A stretch of 61,319 nucleotides of DNA from an uncultured Pseudomonadales bacterium (GCA_964494905.1 CAZBTU010000003.1:1-61319); one strand, 5' to 3'. Positions 1-9,305 are shown, counted from the first letter of the stretch. Program-made: numbers and translations. The notes: a model not told the origin generated them from the letters alone.

Positions 1-18
1 TAAGTCTTAAGAATATAA

Positions 19-57
19 GCAAAAAATAGTTCAAACTGAGGATTTGTGGGCTCACAA
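19..57 (+). repeat. Island interspersed repeat, copy A (short form)
   Basis: GCAAAAAATAGTTCAAACTGAG + 10-nt variable spacer + CTCACAA. Same core and orientation as the copies at 1071, 3128 and 8036. Lies just downstream of the APH gene. Confidence 0.6.
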
Positions 58-82
58 TCAATAATTTCAATCATCTCCAAAC

Positions 83-991
83 CTAATCAATTTCTATCTC
101 TGCAAGCGCGTTCGCGACATTTACAAAACTATCAAGGAAATCTGCATTGTCTTCAACTGCCCATAATGACGATAAGACTGTCTGAAATAATCCCCATAAA
201 TAAATTCTCTTAGAATTTAAATCTAATATTCGAGAAAATGTGTAAATACGATTTTTAAGAATTTCCTTAAGTTTAGGATCACTCCCAATTGCTGGAGGAT
301 TTCTAAGAAATGTAGCAACTTCATATGCTTTTTCACCAATGATTCCAGAAGGATCAATTACTATCCAACCCTTTACAGAGTCAAAAATTATATTGAACTG
401 ATGCAAATCTCCGTGTAAAAGAAACTCCTCTTCTGGATTTTGGGTCAAAAGAATATATGCATCTTGAGCTTTCTTTAAAATGTCCGCAGAAAAAAGCGTA
501 TTCATTGGTGATAATTCTTTAAGCCTAAGAAAGTCCTGATATAGTTCATCTAAACTTCTAAAATCTGAAGAAACATCAACTTTTTTCCACAATCGATCCA
601 TAAGTGATGCAGCTATAATAATTGCTTCATCTTCTTGTATCGTGGCAAGAGTTTGTGCTGGGCTTATTTTTTCTAAAAGAATAGCTGGGATAGATTCATC
701 CACTTGTAATACTTTTGGAACTGGACCATCCTTTTGCAATTTTAAATAATTAATTTCACGATAAAATTCTTGATCTGGATAACTTACTTTAAGAACTATA
801 TCGCTTCCATTCTTAGTTTTGCCTTGAGCCACATAATTGCAATAACTATTTTTGAAAGGAGCTTCAATCTCGATATGCCAGTCTTGTTGTAATTTTTCTA
901 TACTACTCGGAAGTTCTTGTAGCCATTTTTTTCCCGCCTCACCTCGTGAGAGCATAAGCTCATTTAATTGTCTTGGTATATTTATTTGCAT
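83..991 (-). CDS. Aminoglycoside O-phosphotransferase, APH(6)/streptomycin 6-kinase (StrB-like) family
   Basis: LHGDLHQFNIIF...GWIVIDPSGIIGE matches the HGDLHxxN catalytic loop and the IDP motif of APH(6) enzymes. The C-terminal half aligns by eye with StrB. The ATG at 991 (MQINIPR) lies 9 nt downstream of a TATAAT (1006-1001 on minus). The ORF-track start at 1000 is a TTG. Confidence 0.8.
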   Translation of the reverse strand: MQINIPRQLNELMLSRGEAGKKWLQELPSSIEKLQQDWHIEIEAPFKNSYCNYVAQGKTKNGSDIVLKVSYPDQEFYREINYLKLQKDGPVPKVLQVDESIPAILLEKISPAQTLATIQEDEAIIIAASLMDRLWKKVDVSSDFRSLDELYQDFLRLKELSPMNTLFSADILKKAQDAYILLTQNPEEEFLLHGDLHQFNIIFDSVKGWIVIDPSGIIGEKAYEVATFLRNPPAIGSDPKLKEILKNRIYTFSRILDLNSKRIYLWGLFQTVLSSLWAVEDNADFLDSFVNVANALAEIEID

Positions 992-1070
992 AATAATCAA
1001 ATTATACTACTAGAAAAAAACAGTAATCAGTTAATACTTTCATAATTTAATTCTATACAATATATAAGAC

Positions 1071-1127
1071 GTAGCCTCTCGAGGTCTGCAAGAAATGGTT
1101 CAAACTGAGTTGCCTTAGGGTCACAGT
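1071..1127 (+). repeat. Island interspersed repeat, copy B (long form)
   Basis: GTAGCCTCTCGAGGTCTGCAAGAAATGGTTCAAACTGAG + 11-nt spacer + GGGTCACAGT. The left arm GTAGCCTCTCGAGGTCTGCAA is identical to copy D at 8036. Confidence 0.65.
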
Positions 1128-1146
1128 AAAAATAGACATCTTTGGC

Positions 1147-1932
1147 ATGGGAATAAAAGACGAAACAAATTATAAAAGAATTTTAGAAGCTTTACTGATA
1201 GTTGTACTTTTTGTCCTGTTTTTTACATATTTCTGTGCTTTGGACATTTTAAGAAATTCAGCGTCCGAACTGTTAAGGGACGTTCGCCCTGAATTAATTG
1301 GTGCTATCATTACATATTTTTTGATTGAAAAAGCACTTTCTTTTTATAGAGCAAGAGAAGAACAAAGGCGCCTTAAGTTAACTCATGATATGTTAAAATC
1401 AGTACTAAATACGTACATAGATCTTGCAGCATCACTATATAAATCGACCCTAAAAGAAAAAATTCAAATACCAAATTTAGATACATTTTTTAATTCTAAT
1501 TTTGTTGGTTCCATAAACAAGATTGATTTGTCCTCAGAATCTTCAATGTTAGAAATGGATAATCTTGCTTTTACTTCTTATAAGGGAATTCTACTACACA
1601 ATGATTTAGAAAATTTTATCAACATCCACTACTACGAGATAAGCAGTGAGATGTTAGATGCTCTGCTAGAATTTAAAGGTAAACTAATAGCTCTCGCTGG
1701 CTTAAAACAACTCTTTCAAACTCGTAAGCGCGCATTAAAAATTAACATCCCAGATACAACTAATTTGGGGGATCTTTTTGAGATATCGATGAATGAGTTT
1801 AAAAATATAGTTAAATTATTTAACAAAGCTAATCCAAAAAATCCAATTAAACTAAATACTAAAATTTTAGAAGATGGTGTTTGGAATGAAAAGCATGCTC
1901 CAAAATTCGGAAGTGGTATAAAAATGGATTAA
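1147..1932 (+). CDS. Hypothetical membrane protein (two N-terminal TM helices, soluble C-terminal domain)
   Basis: Long ORF in the AT-rich island. Hydrophobic stretches ILEALLIVVLFVLFFTYFCAL and PELIGAIITYFLI. No recognisable motif. Confidence 0.55.
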   Translation: MGIKDETNYKRILEALLIVVLFVLFFTYFCALDILRNSASELLRDVRPELIGAIITYFLIEKALSFYRAREEQRRLKLTHDMLKSVLNTYIDLAASLYKSTLKEKIQIPNLDTFFNSNFVGSINKIDLSSESSMLEMDNLAFTSYKGILLHNDLENFINIHYYEISSEMLDALLEFKGKLIALAGLKQLFQTRKRALKINIPDTTNLGDLFEISMNEFKNIVKLFNKANPKNPIKLNTKILEDGVWNEKHAPKFGSGIKMD

Positions 1933-1955
1933 GCTGTTGAGACCTAGGGTCACAA
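1933..1955 (+). repeat. Partial copy of the island repeat (right arm only)
   Basis: GCTGTTGAGACCTAGGGTCACAA resembles ACTGAGTTGCCTTAGGGTCACAG of copy B. Sits immediately after the stop of ORF 1147-1932. Confidence 0.4.
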
Positions 1956-1982
1956 ATTATTCATTTTTAATACTAAAAACTG

Positions 1983-2026
1983 TGGCGCGTATTTTGGCGC
2001 GTATGTGGCGCGAACTGTGATATACT
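1983..2026 (+). promoter_or_regulatory. Fic1 promoter/operator: three phased TGGCGCG direct repeats plus an extended -10
   Basis: TGGCGCG at 1983-1989, 1995-2001 and 2006-2012 (spacing 12 and 11 bp). TGaTATACT at 2018-2026. The ATG at 2034 is only 7 nt after the -10, so the transcript is near-leaderless. Confidence 0.55.
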
Positions 2027-2033
2027 CATTACT

Positions 2034-3086
2034 ATGTATACTCCAAAATTTACTATTACCTCTGAAATAACAAATCAAATAGCTGAGATTGAAGGTATTC
2101 GCACCATTGTAGATCAAAGCAATATTCTACCAGAGAAAGAAATAGCCCTACGATACAGAGCAACTGTAGAAGCAATACATAGCTCAACTACAATTGAAGG
2201 CAATCAACTAAACAAAAAACAAGTTGAGGCTGTACTTGCTGGAAAAGCTGTGGCACAAACTGAGTATGCCATTACTGAAGTAAAAAATTACAAAAATGCT
2301 CTTGACTGGCTACAAATTAGAAAACAAAACTCTAAACAAATCTCAATTGAAGATATCCTAAAAATACACGAGCTAACTATGGATGGACTTTTACCAAAAG
2401 AAAAAACTGGTCATTTGCGTCCGGGAGAAGTATATATTGTTGACATTATTAATAATGATGAGCAAGTTCGCTACCATGGTCCAAAATCTGAATTACTTCC
2501 TGATTTACTTTCAGATCTGTGTAAATGGCTGGAATTCGAAGCCAGTAAACTGCATCCAGTATTAGCTGCAAGCATCCTTCATTATGAATTTGTTTCAATA
2601 CATCCATTTAGCGATGGAAATGGTAGAGTTACTCGATTATTAACAATGCTCTACTTATCTCTGCGTCAATACGATTTTAGAGGAGTACTTGTCCCAGAGA
2701 TTTATTATCTTGATCATCGTATGCAATATTACAATGCTTTAAACCAAGAAAATGAATATAGTAAGCAAAGAAATGCAAATCTTACTCCATGGATTGAATT
2801 TTTCGTCAAAGGATTTTTAACTACAACCAAACACTTAAAAACAGAAATTACTATTGCTCAAGCAGTTAATCCCAAAAATGTAACCATTCGTCTGTCGCAA
2901 GAAGAAATACAGTTGCTCGACTTTGTGAAACAAATGGGTTCAATTTCGTTGGAAGAAACTTTAGAAATTCTACAAATTCCTAGAAGAACTGCTCAAAGAA
3001 GGCTGAGTGAATTAGTTGATAAAGGACTATTACGATTAAACAGCAGTGGTAAAAATACTAATTATATAGCGCATGTTCACAAGTAA
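2034..3086 (+). CDS. Fic family protein, class II (intramolecular inhibitory helix), with C-terminal winged-HTH-like domain
   Basis: Fic core motif HPFSDGNGRVTR (HxFx[D/E]GNGRxxR). Upstream inhibitory motif STTIEGN ([S/T]xxxE[G/N]). The C-terminal LSQEEIQLLDFVKQMGSISLEETLEILQIPRRTAQRRLSELVDKGLL looks like a wHTH. Confidence 0.88.
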   Translation: MYTPKFTITSEITNQIAEIEGIRTIVDQSNILPEKEIALRYRATVEAIHSSTTIEGNQLNKKQVEAVLAGKAVAQTEYAITEVKNYKNALDWLQIRKQNSKQISIEDILKIHELTMDGLLPKEKTGHLRPGEVYIVDIINNDEQVRYHGPKSELLPDLLSDLCKWLEFEASKLHPVLAASILHYEFVSIHPFSDGNGRVTRLLTMLYLSLRQYDFRGVLVPEIYYLDHRMQYYNALNQENEYSKQRNANLTPWIEFFVKGFLTTTKHLKTEITIAQAVNPKNVTIRLSQEEIQLLDFVKQMGSISLEETLEILQIPRRTAQRRLSELVDKGLLRLNSSGKNTNYIAHVHK

Positions 3087-3127
3087 AGCCAAGCTCTTTT
3101 AGTCGAGCATATGTCTTGAGGATACTG

Positions 3128-3168
3128 GCGAAAAATAGTTCCAACTGAGGGTGTGTGAACTCACAGCG
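3128..3168 (+). repeat. Island interspersed repeat, copy C
   Basis: GCGAAAAATAGTTCCAACTGAG + GGTGTGTGAA spacer + CTCACAGC. A degenerate left arm (ATGTCTTGAGGATACTG) lies at 3111-3127. Located in the convergent gap between Fic1 and the 1148-aa gene. Confidence 0.6.
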
Positions 3169-3224
3169 TTTTTCTCTAGAGTTTTTCACACCCTAAGTGC
3201 AACATTGAACTATTCTTACTTTTT

Positions 3225-3261
3225 TGGCACAATTTTTGGCGCGATTATGGCACAATATAGT
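3225..3261 (+). promoter_or_regulatory. Orphan Fic1-type operator/promoter-like element with no downstream ORF
   Basis: TGGCACA (3225-3231), TGGCGCG (3237-3243) and TGGCACA (3248-3254), with the same 12/11-bp phasing as the Fic1 operator. A TATAGT follows at 3256-3261. It points into the 3' end of the convergent 1148-aa gene. Confidence 0.4.
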
Positions 3262-3347
3262 TTGTATTTACTCAAAATGTAACTTTATAAAGTATTTGAA
3301 GATACAGTAATTTTGCTTTATACTGTGGCAAGACCGACAGGGAATAG

Positions 3348-6300
3348 CTAGTTCAATGCTTCAATATATTTATCAATTTGTTCCTTCATGAATGATGTGG
3401 CATTTGATTGATATGATTTTAATAAGTTAATTATTTCACTCGGTGAAATTATCTGTTGCCATTGATCACTTTTTGATTTATAACTTTCAATAAATTCATA
3501 AAAAAATGTAGGATTTTGAGTTACCTCTCTTATGAATATTCTGGCATCTCTCATTTCTCCTGAGTTAAGTAAGATCGGATTGGAAAGAATAAGCTCTTTG
3601 CGATATGTTGGTAAAATCAAAAAAAGATATTCAAATTGTTTTTCCGAAGCAATTGAAGCAAAGAAATTATTAGGTAGACCTGTTGAATTCACTATATCAA
3701 AAACATAGTGTTCACCATGTAGATCTTTTATCCCACTCAATACATTTAGGTAATCCTTAATCATAAAAGTTTCACCTGAATTCATAAAAGCATCTATTTG
3801 ATCAAAATTACTAACAATATTGGCTAGTGTTGTATAACCATAATCATCATAAATACCACGAAATATTTTATTGATTTGATCTTGATTAAGCTGCCCAAAG
3901 TATTCCTTACAAAGGGTAAAGTATGGGTCAGACTCATCTGCAAGATAAAGTTTTTGCAAGAATTCAGTTCGAAAAAGAGTAAACAGAATCAATTGCTTTG
4001 CCATGGGATCGATGACCATGAACTTATCCAAATATTCTGTATCAAGTTTATCTAAATCTCTGATCGCATCAGGGCTTACTGGCACAGTAAGATCAGAAAG
4101 GTTTGGACTAAGAAGAATAAATCGATTGAAGAGTGAACCACCCAGTTTAACATAGATAACGTTACCTGTATTGTCTTCAAATTCAACAACTTCACCGGTT
4201 ATCAATTTTTGTAGAAGTTCTCTGTATAGCACATTGTCATCAAATTCGACAACTTCGCCGGATATGAATTCCTGTGGTAATCGCGGATCAAATCCATACC
4301 AATTTGCATTTGTGTCAACCGCGATAAATCGTAATTGCGAACCTATTTCTCCACTTTTTGTTTCCGGTTTCGGTGCACCAGGTAGATCATCAATTATTTC
4401 ATCAAATACTGCAAGGTTACTCATTAAATAGTCCAATTGATCTCTGAGTTTTTTACTCCCATAAGGATCTCCTGAATATCCTTGATATATTCCAATATAA
4501 TCCTGAAGCAAGCCGCCAATACTCGCGGACGTAGGTGATACACCTGCTATAGCAAGCAGATTCATAATATGATACATCCCACCAGCTAGGTTAGCCGGAT
4601 CAAAGTTTTTCATTAGAAAATCTTTAGAAGGTATATCCCAGTATTTAGATTCTGGGAGCAGTAACGCTAGATCAGCCGCAGTAAATCCTTTTGAAAAAGG
4701 GTCTTCGATCATTGTCTGAGCCAGAAATCCGGAATCAGAATTATTTAATGAACCTATAGGAGTACCTATAAATGGGTTGTTTCTCGTAATCAGTTTTAAA
4801 GCGATAGTTACATCCCACATTGAGGAGTAGAGATCACCGTCATTTTTAACAAGCGCAAAGGCTAATATATCGGAGATAGGAACTTGGTTTTGTGTATGTT
4901 CATATTGTTGAAAAATAAAATTTTGATAATCAGAAAAATATAAAGTAATTTGTTCAATATTTAGCTGTTTAACTGTTGGGTGAAGCGAGTTATACAAAAC
5001 ACAAACGTCGTGGAAATTAGAAAAATTGCTACTGGATAGATGATAAACTTGTTGTAGTGATTCCGATGTTATTGACAAGAATAGAGGATCACTATTATTA
5101 TTTTTTGATAAAGTATAATCCGTGACAACATCATCTAATCCGACGTAGTCAGGATGAACTTGCCAGAAAACAGGCGAGGGGTCGTGATTATATTTTCTCG
5201 CCATTGTTTCATATGTTGAAAATGCATTCGTTAATAACACATCAATTGTTTGATAATTCAGGTTTTCTTTTTCTAATAATTCATATAGTGCTGTCTGCTT
5301 TTCTTCTGGGAATAATTCGATTTGTTCTCGTAACTGATCATCAAAATCTCTTTCTTTTTCCGTAAGGACAGTGATCGCAAACTCGAATAACTTTTTTGCA
5401 GACTCGGGATCACTTAAATCAGCATTTATCATCTGAATAAATTGTGGGTCTGTGAATATATCAATCAGTGCTTCACTAGGTAGTTTAGAGATAAGATTCA
5501 AGGTCTGATGTTCAAACAGTTCTAAAAATTGTGCTCCCATCTCTGTAGTAGTAAGCCACATTAGACCTTTTTGAATAATCATTTGTTCCTGATTATGGAA
5601 AAAATGTTCTACCGATTCACTCGCAGCCGAAACTATATCAGCTGCTGTCGGACCAAAAACTGAAAGTAAATATAATATATTCACTAAGATTAAATCTTTT
5701 TTTAAATCGGCAGCTCTATCACTATTTGTTGCAACTTGTTCAATTCTTGTACGGATTCTGTTTATCTCTCTTGGTATTTTTTGACCCTGTTGTTCCATGC
5801 AGACACACCACTGGACTATTTTTTGTGTCGGCGTAAGACTATCATCACTAAGCACCAAACTTGCAATTTTAGGCTTCAGTTCTTCAAGAGTTTTCAGGGA
5901 TCGTAAACGACTGACGTTGTCGCCATAGCTGTATGCACCTGATCTCTGATCTTCAAGCAATTGGCCATAAACAACAGCGTGTGAATGTTCTCGAGAACCC
6001 TGTGTAGTCCGTAATGTTTGAGTCAGTACACCCATGTGTTTAAGAGTTTTCTCAATTTCACTTTTACCTTTTTCTTTAAGTGTGTTTTCTAAACCAAAGA
6101 AATCATTTATTCTACCAAAAAATTTGGTTCTTCCAATACTTTCAGCAGCTAGTCCATCAAGCGCCATTGCTTTATTGAGGTTCCATTGTTTCAAAAAATC
6201 ATGATTAGCATCTTTTAAAAAAGAAGCTGCTGTATTCCACCAGGTTTTTGACTCAACTGCAAGAAAATCATAATAACTGATTTTATCGGTAAAACCATCT

Positions 6301-6794
6301 TCGCCTGATTCAAGTTTAAGAGTTAGGAAAACAAATTGCCGTAGTTTTTCAATTGAAGTTTGCTCTAGATCTATTTTCCCCAAACAATCTATAATTTGTT
6401 CTGCGTTTGTGAGCTGTTTTTCTACTAATGGACAAAGATCCGCAAATACTTCAATCATACTCATTCGCACATTTCGTTCTTTCGAATTGTTTGGCTGAAG
6501 AGAGGTGACAGAATCAAATGAATAGGGTTTGATGTATTTTAGAAAACGTTCTACCTTAACTGACAACGTTGTGCTAGGTTCTACAAGGATTTCATTTACC
6601 TTATCATCAAAATCATTTGAGCTTATCGTCGATGCATGAACTTTCTTAATGAAATCAGCTTCTTCTTTCAGTAAATGCAGTATTTTCTTTGAAGTTATTG
6701 CATTTATTTCTTCTAATAAACGCGTCTCAGTCAAGAGCTTCTTTCCAATTTCAAAATTCAAAGTATCAATATTTTCAACAGGTTTTTCGTTCAA
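3348..6794 (-). CDS. Large orphan protein (1148 aa), function unknown
   Basis: Uninterrupted 3.4-kb ORF in AT-rich DNA. Apparent TTG start; the next in-frame Met is about 105 codons in. No catalytic motif recognised. Internal duplicated segment SGEVVEFDDN / TGEVVEFEDN (29-nt DNA repeat at 4171-4199 and 4234-4262). Co-directional with the Fic gene 137 nt upstream. Confidence 0.75.
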   Translation of the reverse strand: MNEKPVENIDTLNFEIGKKLLTETRLLEEINAITSKKILHLLKEEADFIKKVHASTISSNDFDDKVNEILVEPSTTLSVKVERFLKYIKPYSFDSVTSLQPNNSKERNVRMSMIEVFADLCPLVEKQLTNAEQIIDCLGKIDLEQTSIEKLRQFVFLTLKLESGEDGFTDKISYYDFLAVESKTWWNTAASFLKDANHDFLKQWNLNKAMALDGLAAESIGRTKFFGRINDFFGLENTLKEKGKSEIEKTLKHMGVLTQTLRTTQGSREHSHAVVYGQLLEDQRSGAYSYGDNVSRLRSLKTLEELKPKIASLVLSDDSLTPTQKIVQWCVCMEQQGQKIPREINRIRTRIEQVATNSDRAADLKKDLILVNILYLLSVFGPTAADIVSAASESVEHFFHNQEQMIIQKGLMWLTTTEMGAQFLELFEHQTLNLISKLPSEALIDIFTDPQFIQMINADLSDPESAKKLFEFAITVLTEKERDFDDQLREQIELFPEEKQTALYELLEKENLNYQTIDVLLTNAFSTYETMARKYNHDPSPVFWQVHPDYVGLDDVVTDYTLSKNNNSDPLFLSITSESLQQVYHLSSSNFSNFHDVCVLYNSLHPTVKQLNIEQITLYFSDYQNFIFQQYEHTQNQVPISDILAFALVKNDGDLYSSMWDVTIALKLITRNNPFIGTPIGSLNNSDSGFLAQTMIEDPFSKGFTAADLALLLPESKYWDIPSKDFLMKNFDPANLAGGMYHIMNLLAIAGVSPTSASIGGLLQDYIGIYQGYSGDPYGSKKLRDQLDYLMSNLAVFDEIIDDLPGAPKPETKSGEIGSQLRFIAVDTNANWYGFDPRLPQEFISGEVVEFDDNVLYRELLQKLITGEVVEFEDNTGNVIYVKLGGSLFNRFILLSPNLSDLTVPVSPDAIRDLDKLDTEYLDKFMVIDPMAKQLILFTLFRTEFLQKLYLADESDPYFTLCKEYFGQLNQDQINKIFRGIYDDYGYTTLANIVSNFDQIDAFMNSGETFMIKDYLNVLSGIKDLHGEHYVFDIVNSTGLPNNFFASIASEKQFEYLFLILPTYRKELILSNPILLNSGEMRDARIFIREVTQNPTFFYEFIESYKSKSDQWQQIISPSEIINLLKSYQSNATSFMKEQIDKYIEALN

Positions 6795-6931
6795 AACATG
6801 TACTTTTTTTTTAGCAAAATTTCTGGCATGTATTTACTTTAACACGATTTTGTTGATTTTGCACAAAAATGTGAGTTCAATACCCTATGAGAATTTGTTG
6901 AAAAAATACCTGTCATTCATTAAATAAAATC

Positions 6932-7966
6932 TTACTTATCACTCAACACATAATAAGTAGACCGACCCTTACCCTCGCGTTTAATTAAACCTAATTCAAT
7001 CAATCTTTGAAAATCGAGTGTTCTGGTAGCCTTTGCCCTATCAGTCAACTTTGAATATGCTCTATCTGTAATAAAACCGTTTTGCTTTATATAATTAATT
7101 AATTTTAAATGATATGTCTCAATTTTAGTTTCAGGGGAATAACCAGTTTGCGGAATTATCTTTTTCACTCTGTGCAACTCATCAATGATACCTTCTGTAA
7201 AATACTCAAGCCAACTAGTGAAATCAATTGTTTCTCTCAATTCATTATAATCACCACATTCACCAACAGTCTGAAAATATTTTGTTACATTTTTATTGTA
7301 ATAGTTCTCAAAACTAAACAGATTAAATGTATTAAGTCCCATTTTTGCCAACAGAACTTTAGTCATTAATCTTGTGGTTCTACCATTCCCATCAATAAAA
7401 GGGTGGATAATAACCATTTGTTTATGAAAAATGCCTGCCAAAATCAAAGAATCCACAATATTTTTATTTCGGATAACAAATGTGGCAAGTTCTGTCATTA
7501 ATTTATTAACTTGATCATGATCAGGAGGTAAAAATACAACCTTGCCTGTTCTAGGATCATTAACAACTACAGGCTTTTTTCTCAGTCTACCTGACTCAAA
7601 ATCAGGTAACAAGCCGCCAATGACTTTTTTATGAACTGCTAAAATTAGATTTAAAGAAATAGATAAATCATCTTTTTTACTAAGATCATTCAAGTATTCA
7701 AGTGCCTCAATATAGTTAAGCACTTCTCGTTCACTATCACGAATGTATTCTGGTCTATTCTTTAATACTTTTTTAACTTCAGTTAAAGGTAATGGATTAC
7801 CCTCAATACTCGTAGATGCAAAGGCAGAAACTTCTCTTGCCTTTCTTTCAAAATCAATCAATACAACTTTGGGAAATCTTTGATTATTGAGTTCTTCGAC
7901 TAATAAAGCTATATACTTTATATTTGAAAGCAGCTTATTTGTAATCGTATACTTTGGCGTAAACAT
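6932..7966 (-). CDS. Fic family protein, class II, with C-terminal wHTH-like domain (paralog of 2034-3086)
   Basis: Fic motif HPFIDGNGRTTR. Inhibitory motif STSIEGN. N-terminus MFTPKYTITNKLL parallels MYTPKFTITSEIT of Fic1. C-terminal LKLINYIKQNGFITDRAYSKLTDRAKATRTLDFQRLIELGLI is HTH-like. Confidence 0.88.
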   Translation of the reverse strand: MFTPKYTITNKLLSNIKYIALLVEELNNQRFPKVVLIDFERKAREVSAFASTSIEGNPLPLTEVKKVLKNRPEYIRDSEREVLNYIEALEYLNDLSKKDDLSISLNLILAVHKKVIGGLLPDFESGRLRKKPVVVNDPRTGKVVFLPPDHDQVNKLMTELATFVIRNKNIVDSLILAGIFHKQMVIIHPFIDGNGRTTRLMTKVLLAKMGLNTFNLFSFENYYNKNVTKYFQTVGECGDYNELRETIDFTSWLEYFTEGIIDELHRVKKIIPQTGYSPETKIETYHLKLINYIKQNGFITDRAYSKLTDRAKATRTLDFQRLIELGLIKREGKGRSTYYVLSDK

Positions 7967-7968
7967 AT

Positions 7969-8004
7969 TAGTCTAATAATAGTCGATTATTAGTCGATTG
8001 TCAA
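7969..8004 (-). promoter_or_regulatory. Fic2 promoter/operator: TTGACA-17-TATTAT overlaid by three phased TAGTC(G/T)A repeats
   Basis: On the minus strand, TTGACA (8004-7999), a 17-nt spacer, then TATTAT (7981-7976). The ATG at 7966 is 9 nt after the -10. On the plus strand, TAGTCTA 7969-7975, TAGTCGA 7980-7986 and TAGTCGA 7991-7997 (11-bp phasing). Confidence 0.6.
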
Positions 8005-8035
8005 TACTCTGATTTTATGCTAAGTATAGTAAGAT

Positions 8036-8089
8036 GTAGCCTCTCGAGGTCTGCAAAAAATAGTTCCAACTGAGGGCGCGTGGGGTCAC
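8036..8089 (+). repeat. Island interspersed repeat, copy D (long form), at the right edge of the AT-rich island
   Basis: GTAGCCTCTCGAGGTCTGCAAAAAATAGTTCCAACTGAG + GGCGCGTGG spacer + GGTCAC. Coincides with the switch from about one-third GC to higher-GC DNA. Confidence 0.65.
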
Positions 8090-8156
8090 TCTATTGGAGT
8101 TTGTGAGAGTTGATTAGTCTTGCTACTTCTAATAGCAACCAATTTCATCAACTCGA

Positions 8157-8771
8157 TCAGAAGCAGTATGACAACATAATTTCCCTTGCTGTTAGTTTGT
8201 AAAAATTGAAAGCAGCTAGCATTTCGTTTGTGGCATTCTGACTCAGTCGATTTTCACTTCCAGCGATAAACTCAAGACGATCGTCTAACACTTTCGAGTT
8301 AGTTAATGACGATATCCGCCTTGTGACAGACCAAACAGTATCAATGAATGGCGGTAGCTTCATGCCTCTTCTAATCTCAACAAATTCTTCTTCCTCCACT
8401 TGTCTCCCCAACAAAGATGAGATGTATAGCTGCTCCACCCCAAAATCAGTATCGGCATCAAATTTAGTATTAAACACTTTTCGAATAGTAGGAATGATCT
8501 CCTCACTGACAGCTGTTAGAATTTCCTCGACACGTTCGGCTGTGGATACTTGCTTCCCAGTAACACGATCTGTATTGATGGGAAAAAGTGTCGGGACAGC
8601 GTCCTCAGTCAATTCAATGGGCGAGAGGGGCGGCTGCTTAATTGTTGAAAAAACATCGTCGATATCAGGTTGCTGCAAATGTTGTGCCTCAAATTCAAAT
8701 AGGTCCTTTTGCAATCGTGTTCTGTTTATATGTGAAGTGACTGATGCTAGTAACTCACGAGCCAGATGCAA
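8157..8771 (-). CDS. Hypothetical protein (204 aa)
   Basis: ORF co-directional with and 66 nt downstream of the PD-(D/E)xK-like gene. No motif recognised. Confidence 0.55.
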   Translation of the reverse strand: MHLARELLASVTSHINRTRLQKDLFEFEAQHLQQPDIDDVFSTIKQPPLSPIELTEDAVPTLFPINTDRVTGKQVSTAERVEEILTAVSEEIIPTIRKVFNTKFDADTDFGVEQLYISSLLGRQVEEEEFVEIRRGMKLPPFIDTVWSVTRRISSLTNSKVLDDRLEFIAGSENRLSQNATNEMLAAFNFYKLTAREIMLSYCF

Positions 8772-8837
8772 CTGTTCACTAAACTTCTTTTTTTGATCAG
8801 TTGTAGAACTGGGAGGATGTTCAATCTCAGCAATTTC

Positions 8838-9305
8838 TCAAGCGAATGATGCATAAATAAGCTTGTTTCTATAGATCCCGAATGATTCAGCACTTGCAAT
8901 CTTATCAACCTCAAAAGAAGAGTCTACATCAGGTTTCCTAATTTTAACTTCAACTATTGCGGCAACTTCGTATACATCTCCGACGTCTTTTACTACAATA
9001 AAATCAGGCGGATATATTTTTGCATTACTGAGTGAATGCGCCAGCAACTGATTATCAGGAACAGGCGACACATTGCGGATATCTTTCATCGCATGCAGGA
9101 TGAATTGCCCAAGCATCTCAGACTTAGTTCCGGCCCGAGTAAGTATGCCACGATGCTCGAGCATCATTTGTGCTAAATACTCACCAGCCAGACCGACGGC
9201 ATTTTCTAAAGTTTTAGGCCTTTCGAATCGATCAACGACAACTAAATCTGGCTGTAACGATGGACTTATATGCTTAATCTCATCAATCTGGTGTTCCTGA
9301 TTCAT
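8838..9305 (-). CDS. PD-(D/E)xK nuclease-fold-like small protein
   Basis: PPDFIVVKDVGDVYEVAAIVEVKIRK gives PD ... E-x-K in the usual order and spacing. Start refined to the ATG at 9305 (MNQEHQ), 6 nt after TGtTATACT (9320-9312, minus). The longer track ORF (to 9443) would run through that promoter. Confidence 0.45.
   Translation of the reverse strand: MNQEHQIDEIKHISPSLQPDLVVVDRFERPKTLENAVGLAGEYLAQMMLEHRGILTRAGTKSEMLGQFILHAMKDIRNVSPVPDNQLLAHSLSNAKIYPPDFIVVKDVGDVYEVAAIVEVKIRKPDVDSSFEVDKIASAESFGIYRNKLIYASFA

Follow-up and report, generated by a model that had tools for sequence, protein, structure and literature searches.

Phased Direct Repeats in the Promoter of a SoFic-like Fic Gene Covary with the Predicted Recognition Helix of Its Product

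The Fic2 Gene and Its Promoter

The DNA considered here is a stretch of 61,319 nucleotides from an uncultured Pseudomonadales bacterium (GCA_964494905.1 CAZBTU010000003.1:1-61319; hereafter, the window), which carries, 4 kb apart, two genes for Fic proteins whose C-terminal domain is a winged helix-turn-helix (wHTH), Fic1 and Fic2. Genes of this Fic-wHTH type include SoFic-type anti-phage defence genes as well as that of the toxin-regulator CccR, and the control of their expression is poorly understood; the only operator mapped so far, that of CccR, is made of inverted repeats. Here we describe a 36-nt element upstream of Fic2 in which a promoter is overlaid by three phased direct repeats, and we argue that these repeats are probably the operator through which Fic2 would repress its own gene.

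Fic2 orthologs were taken as the best 80 of 560 relatives from a scan of species-representative genomes (64-85% protein identity); together with the window they make up the 81 loci to which the counts below refer. The features at Fic2 are as follows, in order along the window.

6932..7966, minus strand: Fic2 coding sequence (344 aa) from the list of open reading frames (ORFs); class II Fic AMP-transferase with a C-terminal winged helix
6944..7117, minus strand: wHTH region, residues 284-341, from the secondary structure of an AlphaFold2 (AF2) model and weak Pfam wHTH matches
6995..7033, minus strand: predicted recognition helix KATRTLDFQRLIE, residues 312-324 (AF2 model)
7019..7021, minus strand: codon of Thr316, which covaries with base N of the putative operator
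7370..7405, minus strand: Fic catalytic motif HPFIDGNGRTTR, residues 188-199; invariant in orthologs
7796..7816, minus strand: inhibitory-helix motif STSIEGN, residues 51-57, of the form (S/T)xxxE(G/N) and N-terminal to the Fic core; invariant in orthologs
7969..8004, minus strand: 36-nt promoter and putative operator element TTGACAATCGACTAATAATCGACTATTATTAGACTA; found in 81/81 loci with at least 26/32 specified positions matched
7969..7976, minus strand: repeat 3, TTAGACTA, degenerate; over the discriminator and the predicted transcription start, 2 nt before the ATG
7976..7981, minus strand: -10 hexamer TATTAT; the TA..AT positions kept in 80-81/81 loci
7980..7987, minus strand: repeat 2, ATCGACTA; from the spacer into the -10; base N at 7983
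7991..7998, minus strand: repeat 1, ATCGACTA; in the promoter spacer; base N at 7994
7999..8004, minus strand: -35 hexamer TTGACA; T, T, G and the final A kept in 79-81/81 loci

Fic2 is recognized as a Fic/Fido protein by Pfam (PF02661, E=1e-15, 58.8 bits against a cut-off of 24), and its catalytic motif has the form HxFx(D/E)GNGRxxR within a Fic fold. The N-terminal motif is that of a class II Fic protein, from which self-inhibition is predicted. In the AF2 model (pLDDT 85.6), the C-terminal region consists of helices 284-296, 301-305 and 312-324 followed by strands 328-331 and 338-341. Foldseek returned full-length matches of this model to 4rgl (Dde_2494), 8cil (CbFic2), 3eqx (SoFic) and 7xux, which from its chain length, title and release date we take to be the CccR structure; the probability was 1.00 for FICD, SoFic and others. 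Together with the PADLOC SoFic profile, which matched nearly end to end (E=1.6e-46, residues 47-341), this gives Fic2 the SoFic-like Fic-wHTH architecture of SoFic, CccR, CbFic2 and Dde_2494. The Pfam family SoFic-like_C was not significant for Fic2, which gave weak wHTH matches instead, and the score against the SoFic equivalog NCBIfam NF046030 was 63.9 bits, below the 550-bit cut-off. Judged by these profiles, Fic2 is a distant relative of SoFic and not an ortholog. The close homologs of Fic2 all belong to Microgenomates-type candidate-phyla-radiation (CPR) bacteria.

Read on the minus strand, the DNA upstream of Fic2 is agagta-TTGACA-atcgactaataatcgac-TATTAT-tagactaat-ATG, that is, a -35 and a -10 hexamer separated by a 17-nt spacer, with 9 nt between the -10 and the ATG at 7966. 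In a promoter scan this was the top site of the interval 6700-9000, with a consensus score of 11/12, and its layout upstream of a gene, with a spacer in the 16-18-nt range, is that of a sigma-70-type promoter. An earlier reading of the window from sequence alone (the sequence-only reading) had placed a TTGACA-17-TATTAT promoter at this distance from the start codon, and the strand reading and the scan both bear it out. The -10 varies among the loci to TATAAT, TAAAAT and TAATAT, all of them valid -10 forms.

The distance between the -10 and the ATG is 6-10 nt in 62/81 loci, and no GGAGG was found as a Shine-Dalgarno sequence between the -10 and the ATG of Fic2. Because of this short distance and the missing Shine-Dalgarno sequence, the arrangement points to an mRNA that is leaderless or nearly so, with a start predicted from the -10-to-ATG distance. 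A few orthologs have a long leader between the putative operator and the ATG (73-77 nt in L040, L047, L049 and L058; 38 nt in L061), which contains a conserved hairpin, GCTTACTTTGTAGC...GCTACAAAGAGCGC, matching no known RNA family. In four others (L041, L048, L076 and L080), the segment made of the -10 and repeat 3 is present again 35-53 nt downstream. No known RNA family was matched in the leader or the upstream region.

The sequence-only reading had also described three TAGTC(G/T)A heptamers at 11-bp intervals over this promoter. On the plus strand they lie at 7969-7975 (TAGTCTA), 7980-7986 and 7991-7997 (both TAGTCGA), and the start-to-start distances are exactly 11 and 11. This spacing stands; the unit had to be revised, for the conserved unit is better described as 8 nt, ATCGNCTA on the coding strand, and the third copy is degenerate. 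Promoter and repeats are interlocked: repeat 2 ends with what are also the first two bases of the -10, whose last base in turn opens repeat 3. On its own, the heptamer shows no enrichment in the window (10 matches vs 9.5 expected). The phased triple, even with 2 mismatches allowed, occurs once in the window and in 0/100 shuffles, so that only the phased cluster, not the single heptamer, is special there. Single copies of TAGTCGA at 3100-3106 (14 nt after the Fic1 stop codon) and at 7896-7902 (inside the Fic2 coding sequence, ~64 nt after the ATG) are probably coincidental, given that the overall count is at chance level.

Conservation of the Element

The consensus TTGACAATCGNCTAATAATCGNCTATTATTNGNCTA was found in 80/80 ortholog loci, with the units always located between the -35 and the ATG. 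Their 11+11 phasing, whose conservation in orthologous loci had been put forward as a check on the sequence-only reading, was kept throughout and never gapped. Across the 81 loci, the information content was 1.6-2.0 bits per position in the element vs 0.02-0.4 in the 30 nt upstream of the -35, where conservation ends sharply. Mean pairwise identity was 0.824 over the whole element and 0.858 over the 17-nt spacer alone, as compared to 0.283 in the flank directly upstream, 0.423 at third codon positions and 0.800 at codon positions 1 and 2. Promoter spacers are normally unconstrained; the identity of this one therefore implies that something reads it.

The repeats are tied to the gene rather than to its surroundings. 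In 482 kb of ortholog loci, paired sites were found at Fic2 promoters only, save one at a contig end, and the window contains a paired site once, at Fic2, with no further sites that would make up a regulon. None of the eight flanking proteins of the window (0/8) recurs in any of the 80 ortholog loci, neither as a conserved neighbour nor as an operon partner. With no conserved neighbour gene, the regulator must travel with the Fic2 gene, and the lack of shared flanks, together with paired sites essentially confined to Fic2, makes the gene and its promoter a self-contained mobile module.

A palindromic operator of the CccR kind was also considered and rejected. An 8-nt inverted repeat can be drawn around repeat 2, but it is not kept in orthologs with a TATAAT-type -10; the conserved repeats at Fic2 promoters are direct only.

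Covariation of Residue 316 with the Repeats

Within the unit TCGNCTA there is one freely variable base, N, which is mostly identical in repeats 1 and 2: the pair is TT in 40 loci, AA in 22, AC in 10 and CC in 7, and mixtures of A and T never occur. When the bases were compared with the 378 columns of the protein alignment, residue 316 (in RAKATR[T/A]LDF) was the most informative column for N in all three repeats, with 0.95, 1.02 and 0.56 bits for repeats 1, 2 and 3, respectively; runner-up columns reached 0.65-0.71 bits. For control DNA positions, the top column was not residue 316. In repeat 2 the rule has no exception, Ala316 (and one Asn) occurring with T and Thr316 (and two Arg) with A or C, so that residue and base are concordant in 80/80 loci.

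Residue and base have switched repeatedly. On a tree built from residues 1-280 only, the state changed 9 times (6-12 times in 200 bootstrap trees, median 9). One such case lies close to the window: L003, with Ala and TCGTCTA, is nested in a clade formed by the window, L001 and L002, all with Thr and TCGACTA, at ~85% identity. The covarying sites are ~950 nt apart, at opposite ends of the Fic2 gene, and a perfect association maintained through this many switches over such a distance is not explained by mere co-inheritance.

In the AF2 model, the predicted recognition helix has residue 316 at its fifth position. In the alignment, this residue stands opposite the invariant Gln of the Fic1 motif RTAQRRL, presumably a classic base-contacting position of wHTH domains. 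The sequence-only reading had expected the repeats to covary with the recognition helix, and on this point the ortholog loci agreed with it. Because base N tracks residue 316 in every ortholog locus and through 6-12 independent switches, we consider it likely, on these comparative grounds, that the three units serve Fic2's own winged helix as its operator and mediate autorepression.

Fic1 and More Distant Relatives

The corresponding features at Fic1, which shares 26% protein identity with Fic2, are as follows.

1984..2013, plus strand: operator-like triple GGCGCGT, GGCGCGT, GGCGCGA, starting at 1984, 1996 and 2007 (12+11 bp); 0 expected in shuffles
2018..2026, plus strand: extended -10, TGaTATACT, 7 nt before the ATG at 2034; TGnTAnnnT in orthologs
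2034..3086, plus strand: Fic1 (350 aa), with helix PRRTAQRRLSEL; PADLOC SoFic match nearly end to end (E=5.6e-54)

Nine Fic1 orthologs (L081, L082, L161, L163, L164, L166, L169, L171 and L172) keep a TGGCGCG triple with 12+11 spacing and the extended -10, and their recognition helix, P(R/K)RTAQRRL, is unlike that of Fic2. According to the sequence-only reading, both paralogs share one geometry. This was correct in that each has three direct units about one turn apart, inside the polymerase footprint and with almost no leader. It was inaccurate as to spacing, which is 12+11 at Fic1, and as to placement: the Fic1 triple lies at about -50 to -20, in place of a -35 and before the extended -10, whereas that of Fic2 runs from the spacer to +1 under a -35/-10 promoter.

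Both the helix RTAQRRL and the heptamer GGCGCG of Fic1 differ from their Fic2 counterparts, and the two paralogs could therefore be regulated independently. Cross-talk between them would then be absent, as we infer from these sequences, and the difference offers a rationale for the separate regulation of two Fic genes only 4 kb apart. A similar pair exists at L001, where a Fic2 ortholog and a Fic1-like gene stand side by side, each with its own repeats.

The Fic1-type repeats also affect annotation, as gene callers sometimes extend these ORFs into the putative operator. Such is the case at L168:1501 and L173:1501 (P0139, P0219, also P0124), which are called too long because the third repeat, ATGTGGCG, contains an ATG; the false N-terminal extension reads MWREY..., and the real start is a conserved M(Y/F)xPxF.

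We further examined 78 distant Fic-wHTH loci, taken among the matches listed in a metagenome scan, for heptamer triples at a threshold of at least 17/21. Such triples were present in 34/78 loci; 29 of the 34 had periods of 10-12 bp, and 22 were spaced exactly 12+11. Shuffled sequences reached the threshold in 21/780 cases, spread over all periods. The heptamers differ as the recognition helices differ:

Helix P(R/K)RTAQRRL: unit GGCGCGA
Helix PKRTAQ(A/D)KL: unit TTGCGCGA
Helix S(R/K)QGALDL: unit CTTGAC(T/C)
Helix TKQGAIKL: unit GTTGTCT
Helix SRQAILKE: unit GTTGTCA

Similar repeats occur at plasmid-borne homologs in cultured bacteria, namely Bartonella kosoyi, Agrobacterium fabrum and Mycetohabitans, which provide cases that can be tested at the bench. 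The plasmid search was productive with Fic1 as the query; with Fic2 it returned only three weak matches. Homologs inside type I restriction-modification operons showed no such repeats.

Comparison with Known Systems

Autorepression by a Fic-wHTH protein has a precedent in CccR of Yersinia pseudotuberculosis, a Fic-HTH protein that represses its own promoter via the C-terminal HTH, with dimerisation needed; its operator consists of two inverted 10-bp repeats 26 bp apart, bound by a back-to-back dimer (PMC9755527). Like Fic2, CccR is a class II Fic protein with a C-terminal winged helix, and its binding to the promoter of its own gene, near the -35 and -10, is repressive; its toxic AMPylation and its DNA binding are separable. 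The Fic2 model and 7xux could be aligned over ~370 columns, at a sequence identity of ~20%. The two systems differ in that Fic2 has three direct 8-bp repeats at 11 bp in place of two inverted repeats with a ~26-bp spacer, and in that CccR is a 380-aa effector of the type VI secretion system, whereas Fic2 is a stand-alone gene of 344 aa.

SoFic and EcSofic, from Shewanella oneidensis and E. coli, respectively, have the same domain order as Fic2 and are single-gene anti-phage defence systems that act as EF-Tu AMPylases. EcSofic is a defence toxin with a reported small downstream antitoxin, AS1 (PMC12249575), whereas no conserved small ORF that could be an AS1-like antitoxin follows Fic2. SoFic binds, as a dimer, the 100 bp upstream of its own start codon (bioRxiv 10.64898/2026.07.09.737422). 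In the DNA printed in Table S2 of that study, the 140 bp upstream of SoFic contain, by our count, ATGTCGAT/ATCGACAT five times, at about -137, -107, -68, -57 and -28. Three of these copies are in the authors' bound fragment, a fourth spans the border between that fragment and F2, and two copies form an inverted pair with a distance of 11 bp. The motif shares an ATCGAC core with the Fic2 unit ATCGACTA, but its copies have mixed orientation and irregular distances, unlike the phased direct repeats of Fic2.

The closest analogy in geometry comes from an unrelated family. The winged helices of the response regulators PhoB and OmpR read direct repeats with an 11-bp period, each made of ~7 conserved bp and an A/T-rich linker, and their domains are arranged head to tail on one face of the DNA, as proposed here for Fic2. 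No homology is claimed, and these regulators differ from what we propose for Fic2 in usually being activators that replace the -35. A likeness of another kind is that to Phd/Doc and other type II toxin-antitoxin operons, which combine a Fic-fold toxin with autorepression at a promoter-overlapping operator. There, a separate antitoxin serves as DNA binder and inhibitor, whereas Fic2 unites inhibitory helix, enzyme and DNA-binding domain in a single polypeptide.

Full-text literature searches returned no report of a direct-repeat operator for any Fic protein. Autorepression by a Fic-wHTH protein is thus already known from CccR, as is binding of SoFic to its own promoter; what is new here is the direct-repeat architecture, its breadth, and a specificity switch that involves one residue and one base.

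Proposed Autorepression and Its Alternatives

What the sequences show is the anatomy of the element, its conservation and its covariation with residue 316; for binding, its cooperativity and stoichiometry, the start of transcription, and repression as the direction of control, we propose the following scheme for Fic2. The 36-nt element would be a strong, near-consensus sigma-70-type promoter with a built-in operator for its own gene product. The C-terminal winged helix of Fic2, a predicted self-inhibited, SoFic-like AMP-transferase of class II, would recognize ATCGNCTA at three head-to-tail sites one helical turn apart, the first located in the spacer, the second across the -10 and the third over the transcription start. 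With rising amounts of Fic2, these sites would become occupied by its wHTH domains along one face of the DNA, probably in a cooperative manner; the recognition helix would lie in the major groove at the unit, and the wing on the A/T-rich 3-nt linkers. Residue 316 appears to read the fourth base of TCGNCTA, Ala selecting T and Thr selecting A or C. Bound Fic2 would exclude RNA polymerase, so that a potentially toxic enzyme, translated from an mRNA predicted to be leaderless, would limit its own synthesis by negative autoregulation.

Several observations weigh against this scheme, or at least against parts of it. The Fic-wHTH relatives CccR, SoFic, EcSofic and CbFic2 form dimers of two-fold symmetry, and a simple dimer of this kind does not match three sites arranged head to tail. 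Repeat 3 of Fic2 is degenerate and shows a weaker covariation with residue 316 (0.56 bits). Among the Thr316 proteins, no second specificity residue that would account for A vs C was found in the wHTH; residue 317 gave a weak signal, in one clade only. The predicted transcription start, and hence the leaderless status, derives solely from the -10-to-ATG distance. Finally, the position of the Fic1-type triple, upstream of an extended -10 and without a -35, would also suit activation.

This last point leads to the alternative that survives best, namely, that Fic2 binds the repeats as an activator or a dual regulator in the manner of PhoB/OmpR. A 7-8-bp unit with an A/T linker every 11 bp is what is generally known from pho boxes, and the Fic1-type triple, which replaces the -35 before an extended -10, is where class II activators sit. 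The Fic2 promoter, however, comes with a consensus -35, a spacer of 17 nt and a good -10 of its own (11/12), all of them conserved. Its sites cover the spacer, the -10 and +1, where a bound protein occludes polymerase, and the characterized relative CccR is a repressor. We therefore regard activation as improbable.

Smaller still is the chance that covariation reflects the co-inheritance of two old haplotypes, Ala316/T and Thr316/A or C, spread by horizontal transfer, with the 11-bp tandem homogenized by slippage. The module is indeed mobile, its gene contexts vary and tRNA genes often adjoin it, and tandem 11-mers can undergo concerted evolution. Nevertheless, the tree of the 280 residues that intervene between the two sites requires 6-12 switches, and to keep residue and base linked through so many events needs selection for their compatibility. 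Furthermore, the other positions of the element track different protein columns, and the element is more conserved than codon positions 1 and 2 (0.824 vs 0.800).

It is just as improbable that the repeats serve another host-encoded regulator or are a general promoter feature, the wHTH of Fic2 being used elsewhere, for example for non-specific DNA tethering: CbFic2 does bind random DNA, non-specifically and at high affinity, and is activated as an enzyme by DNA (PMC10628234), but base N follows a residue of the Fic2 helix in 80/80 loci and through at least 6 independent switches, the element stands only before Fic2 orthologs, and the 80 loci have no flanking gene in common.

If the repeats are indeed the operator of Fic2, they represent a second operator architecture for Fic-wHTH proteins, different from that of CccR, present in 81/81 loci and recurring, with other heptamers, in many distant relatives. 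The rule that pairs Ala316 with T and Thr316 with A or C is falsifiable and was obtained from natural variation alone.

A broader proposal, which we put forward tentatively and which may well prove wrong, is that SoFic-like Fic-wHTH enzymes of many phyla have a regulatory design in common. It would comprise three head-to-tail units 11-12 bp apart in each gene's own promoter, and a code relating one or two recognition-helix residues to one or two bases, which would let paralogs diversify and coexist. As DNA binding and oligomerisation govern catalysis in the relatives CbFic2 and SoFic, the triple operator might further serve as a scaffold on which the oligomeric form and the activity of the Fic enzyme are set, and promoter occupancy would then be coupled to AMPylation. 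Were such a coupling to exist, a single protein would form a circuit of toxin, antitoxin and repressor.

Genomic Surroundings

The first 8 kb of the window have a GC content of 32% vs 44% elsewhere. This low-GC stretch (1-8000) contains an APH(6)-like kinase gene (83-1000, minus strand), an orphan ORF of 261 aa, Fic1, a gene for an 1148-aa protein (3348-6794, minus strand) for which Pfam, NCBIfam and PADLOC gave no match, and Fic2. The stretch resembles a genomic island, and both of its Fic genes match the PADLOC profile of SoFic, a defence system that protects against phage by abortive infection through AMPylation. In other loci, Fic modules are often found directly beside tRNA genes (L013, L061:2846-2919, L080:2797-2883 and L168), consistent with island insertion.

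Upstream of the Fic2 -35, at 8020-8090 (minus strand), the window has a stretch of ~70 nt, GTGACCCCA...CTCAGTTGGAAC.ATTTTT.GCAGACCTCGAGAGGCTACATCTTA, which is shared with L001 and L003, the closest loci, and is absent from L002 and L004.

A different conserved element, 100-200 nt long and ending ~12 nt upstream of the Fic2 -35, was noticed in ~15 ortholog loci; it was not detected in the window and had no Rfam match. Its sequence runs in the order CCGAATGATCCTTGTGG...GTGAAAGTA...CTGTTAGGGAG...CCACAAGGATCGAAA, and copies on the minus strand are at L046:444-606, 2784-2962 and 5825-5991; L041:1036-1147 and 2729-2928; L050:1991-2116; L052:730-863; and L011:793-913. A long-range helix of 9 bp persists despite G-U changes and one compensatory change, and the element contains inserted hairpins that vary. 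Possible identities are a small RNA not described so far, a repeat element and a recombination site. The element occurs in multiple copies, and those of L046 flank the Fic2 cassette in the same orientation.

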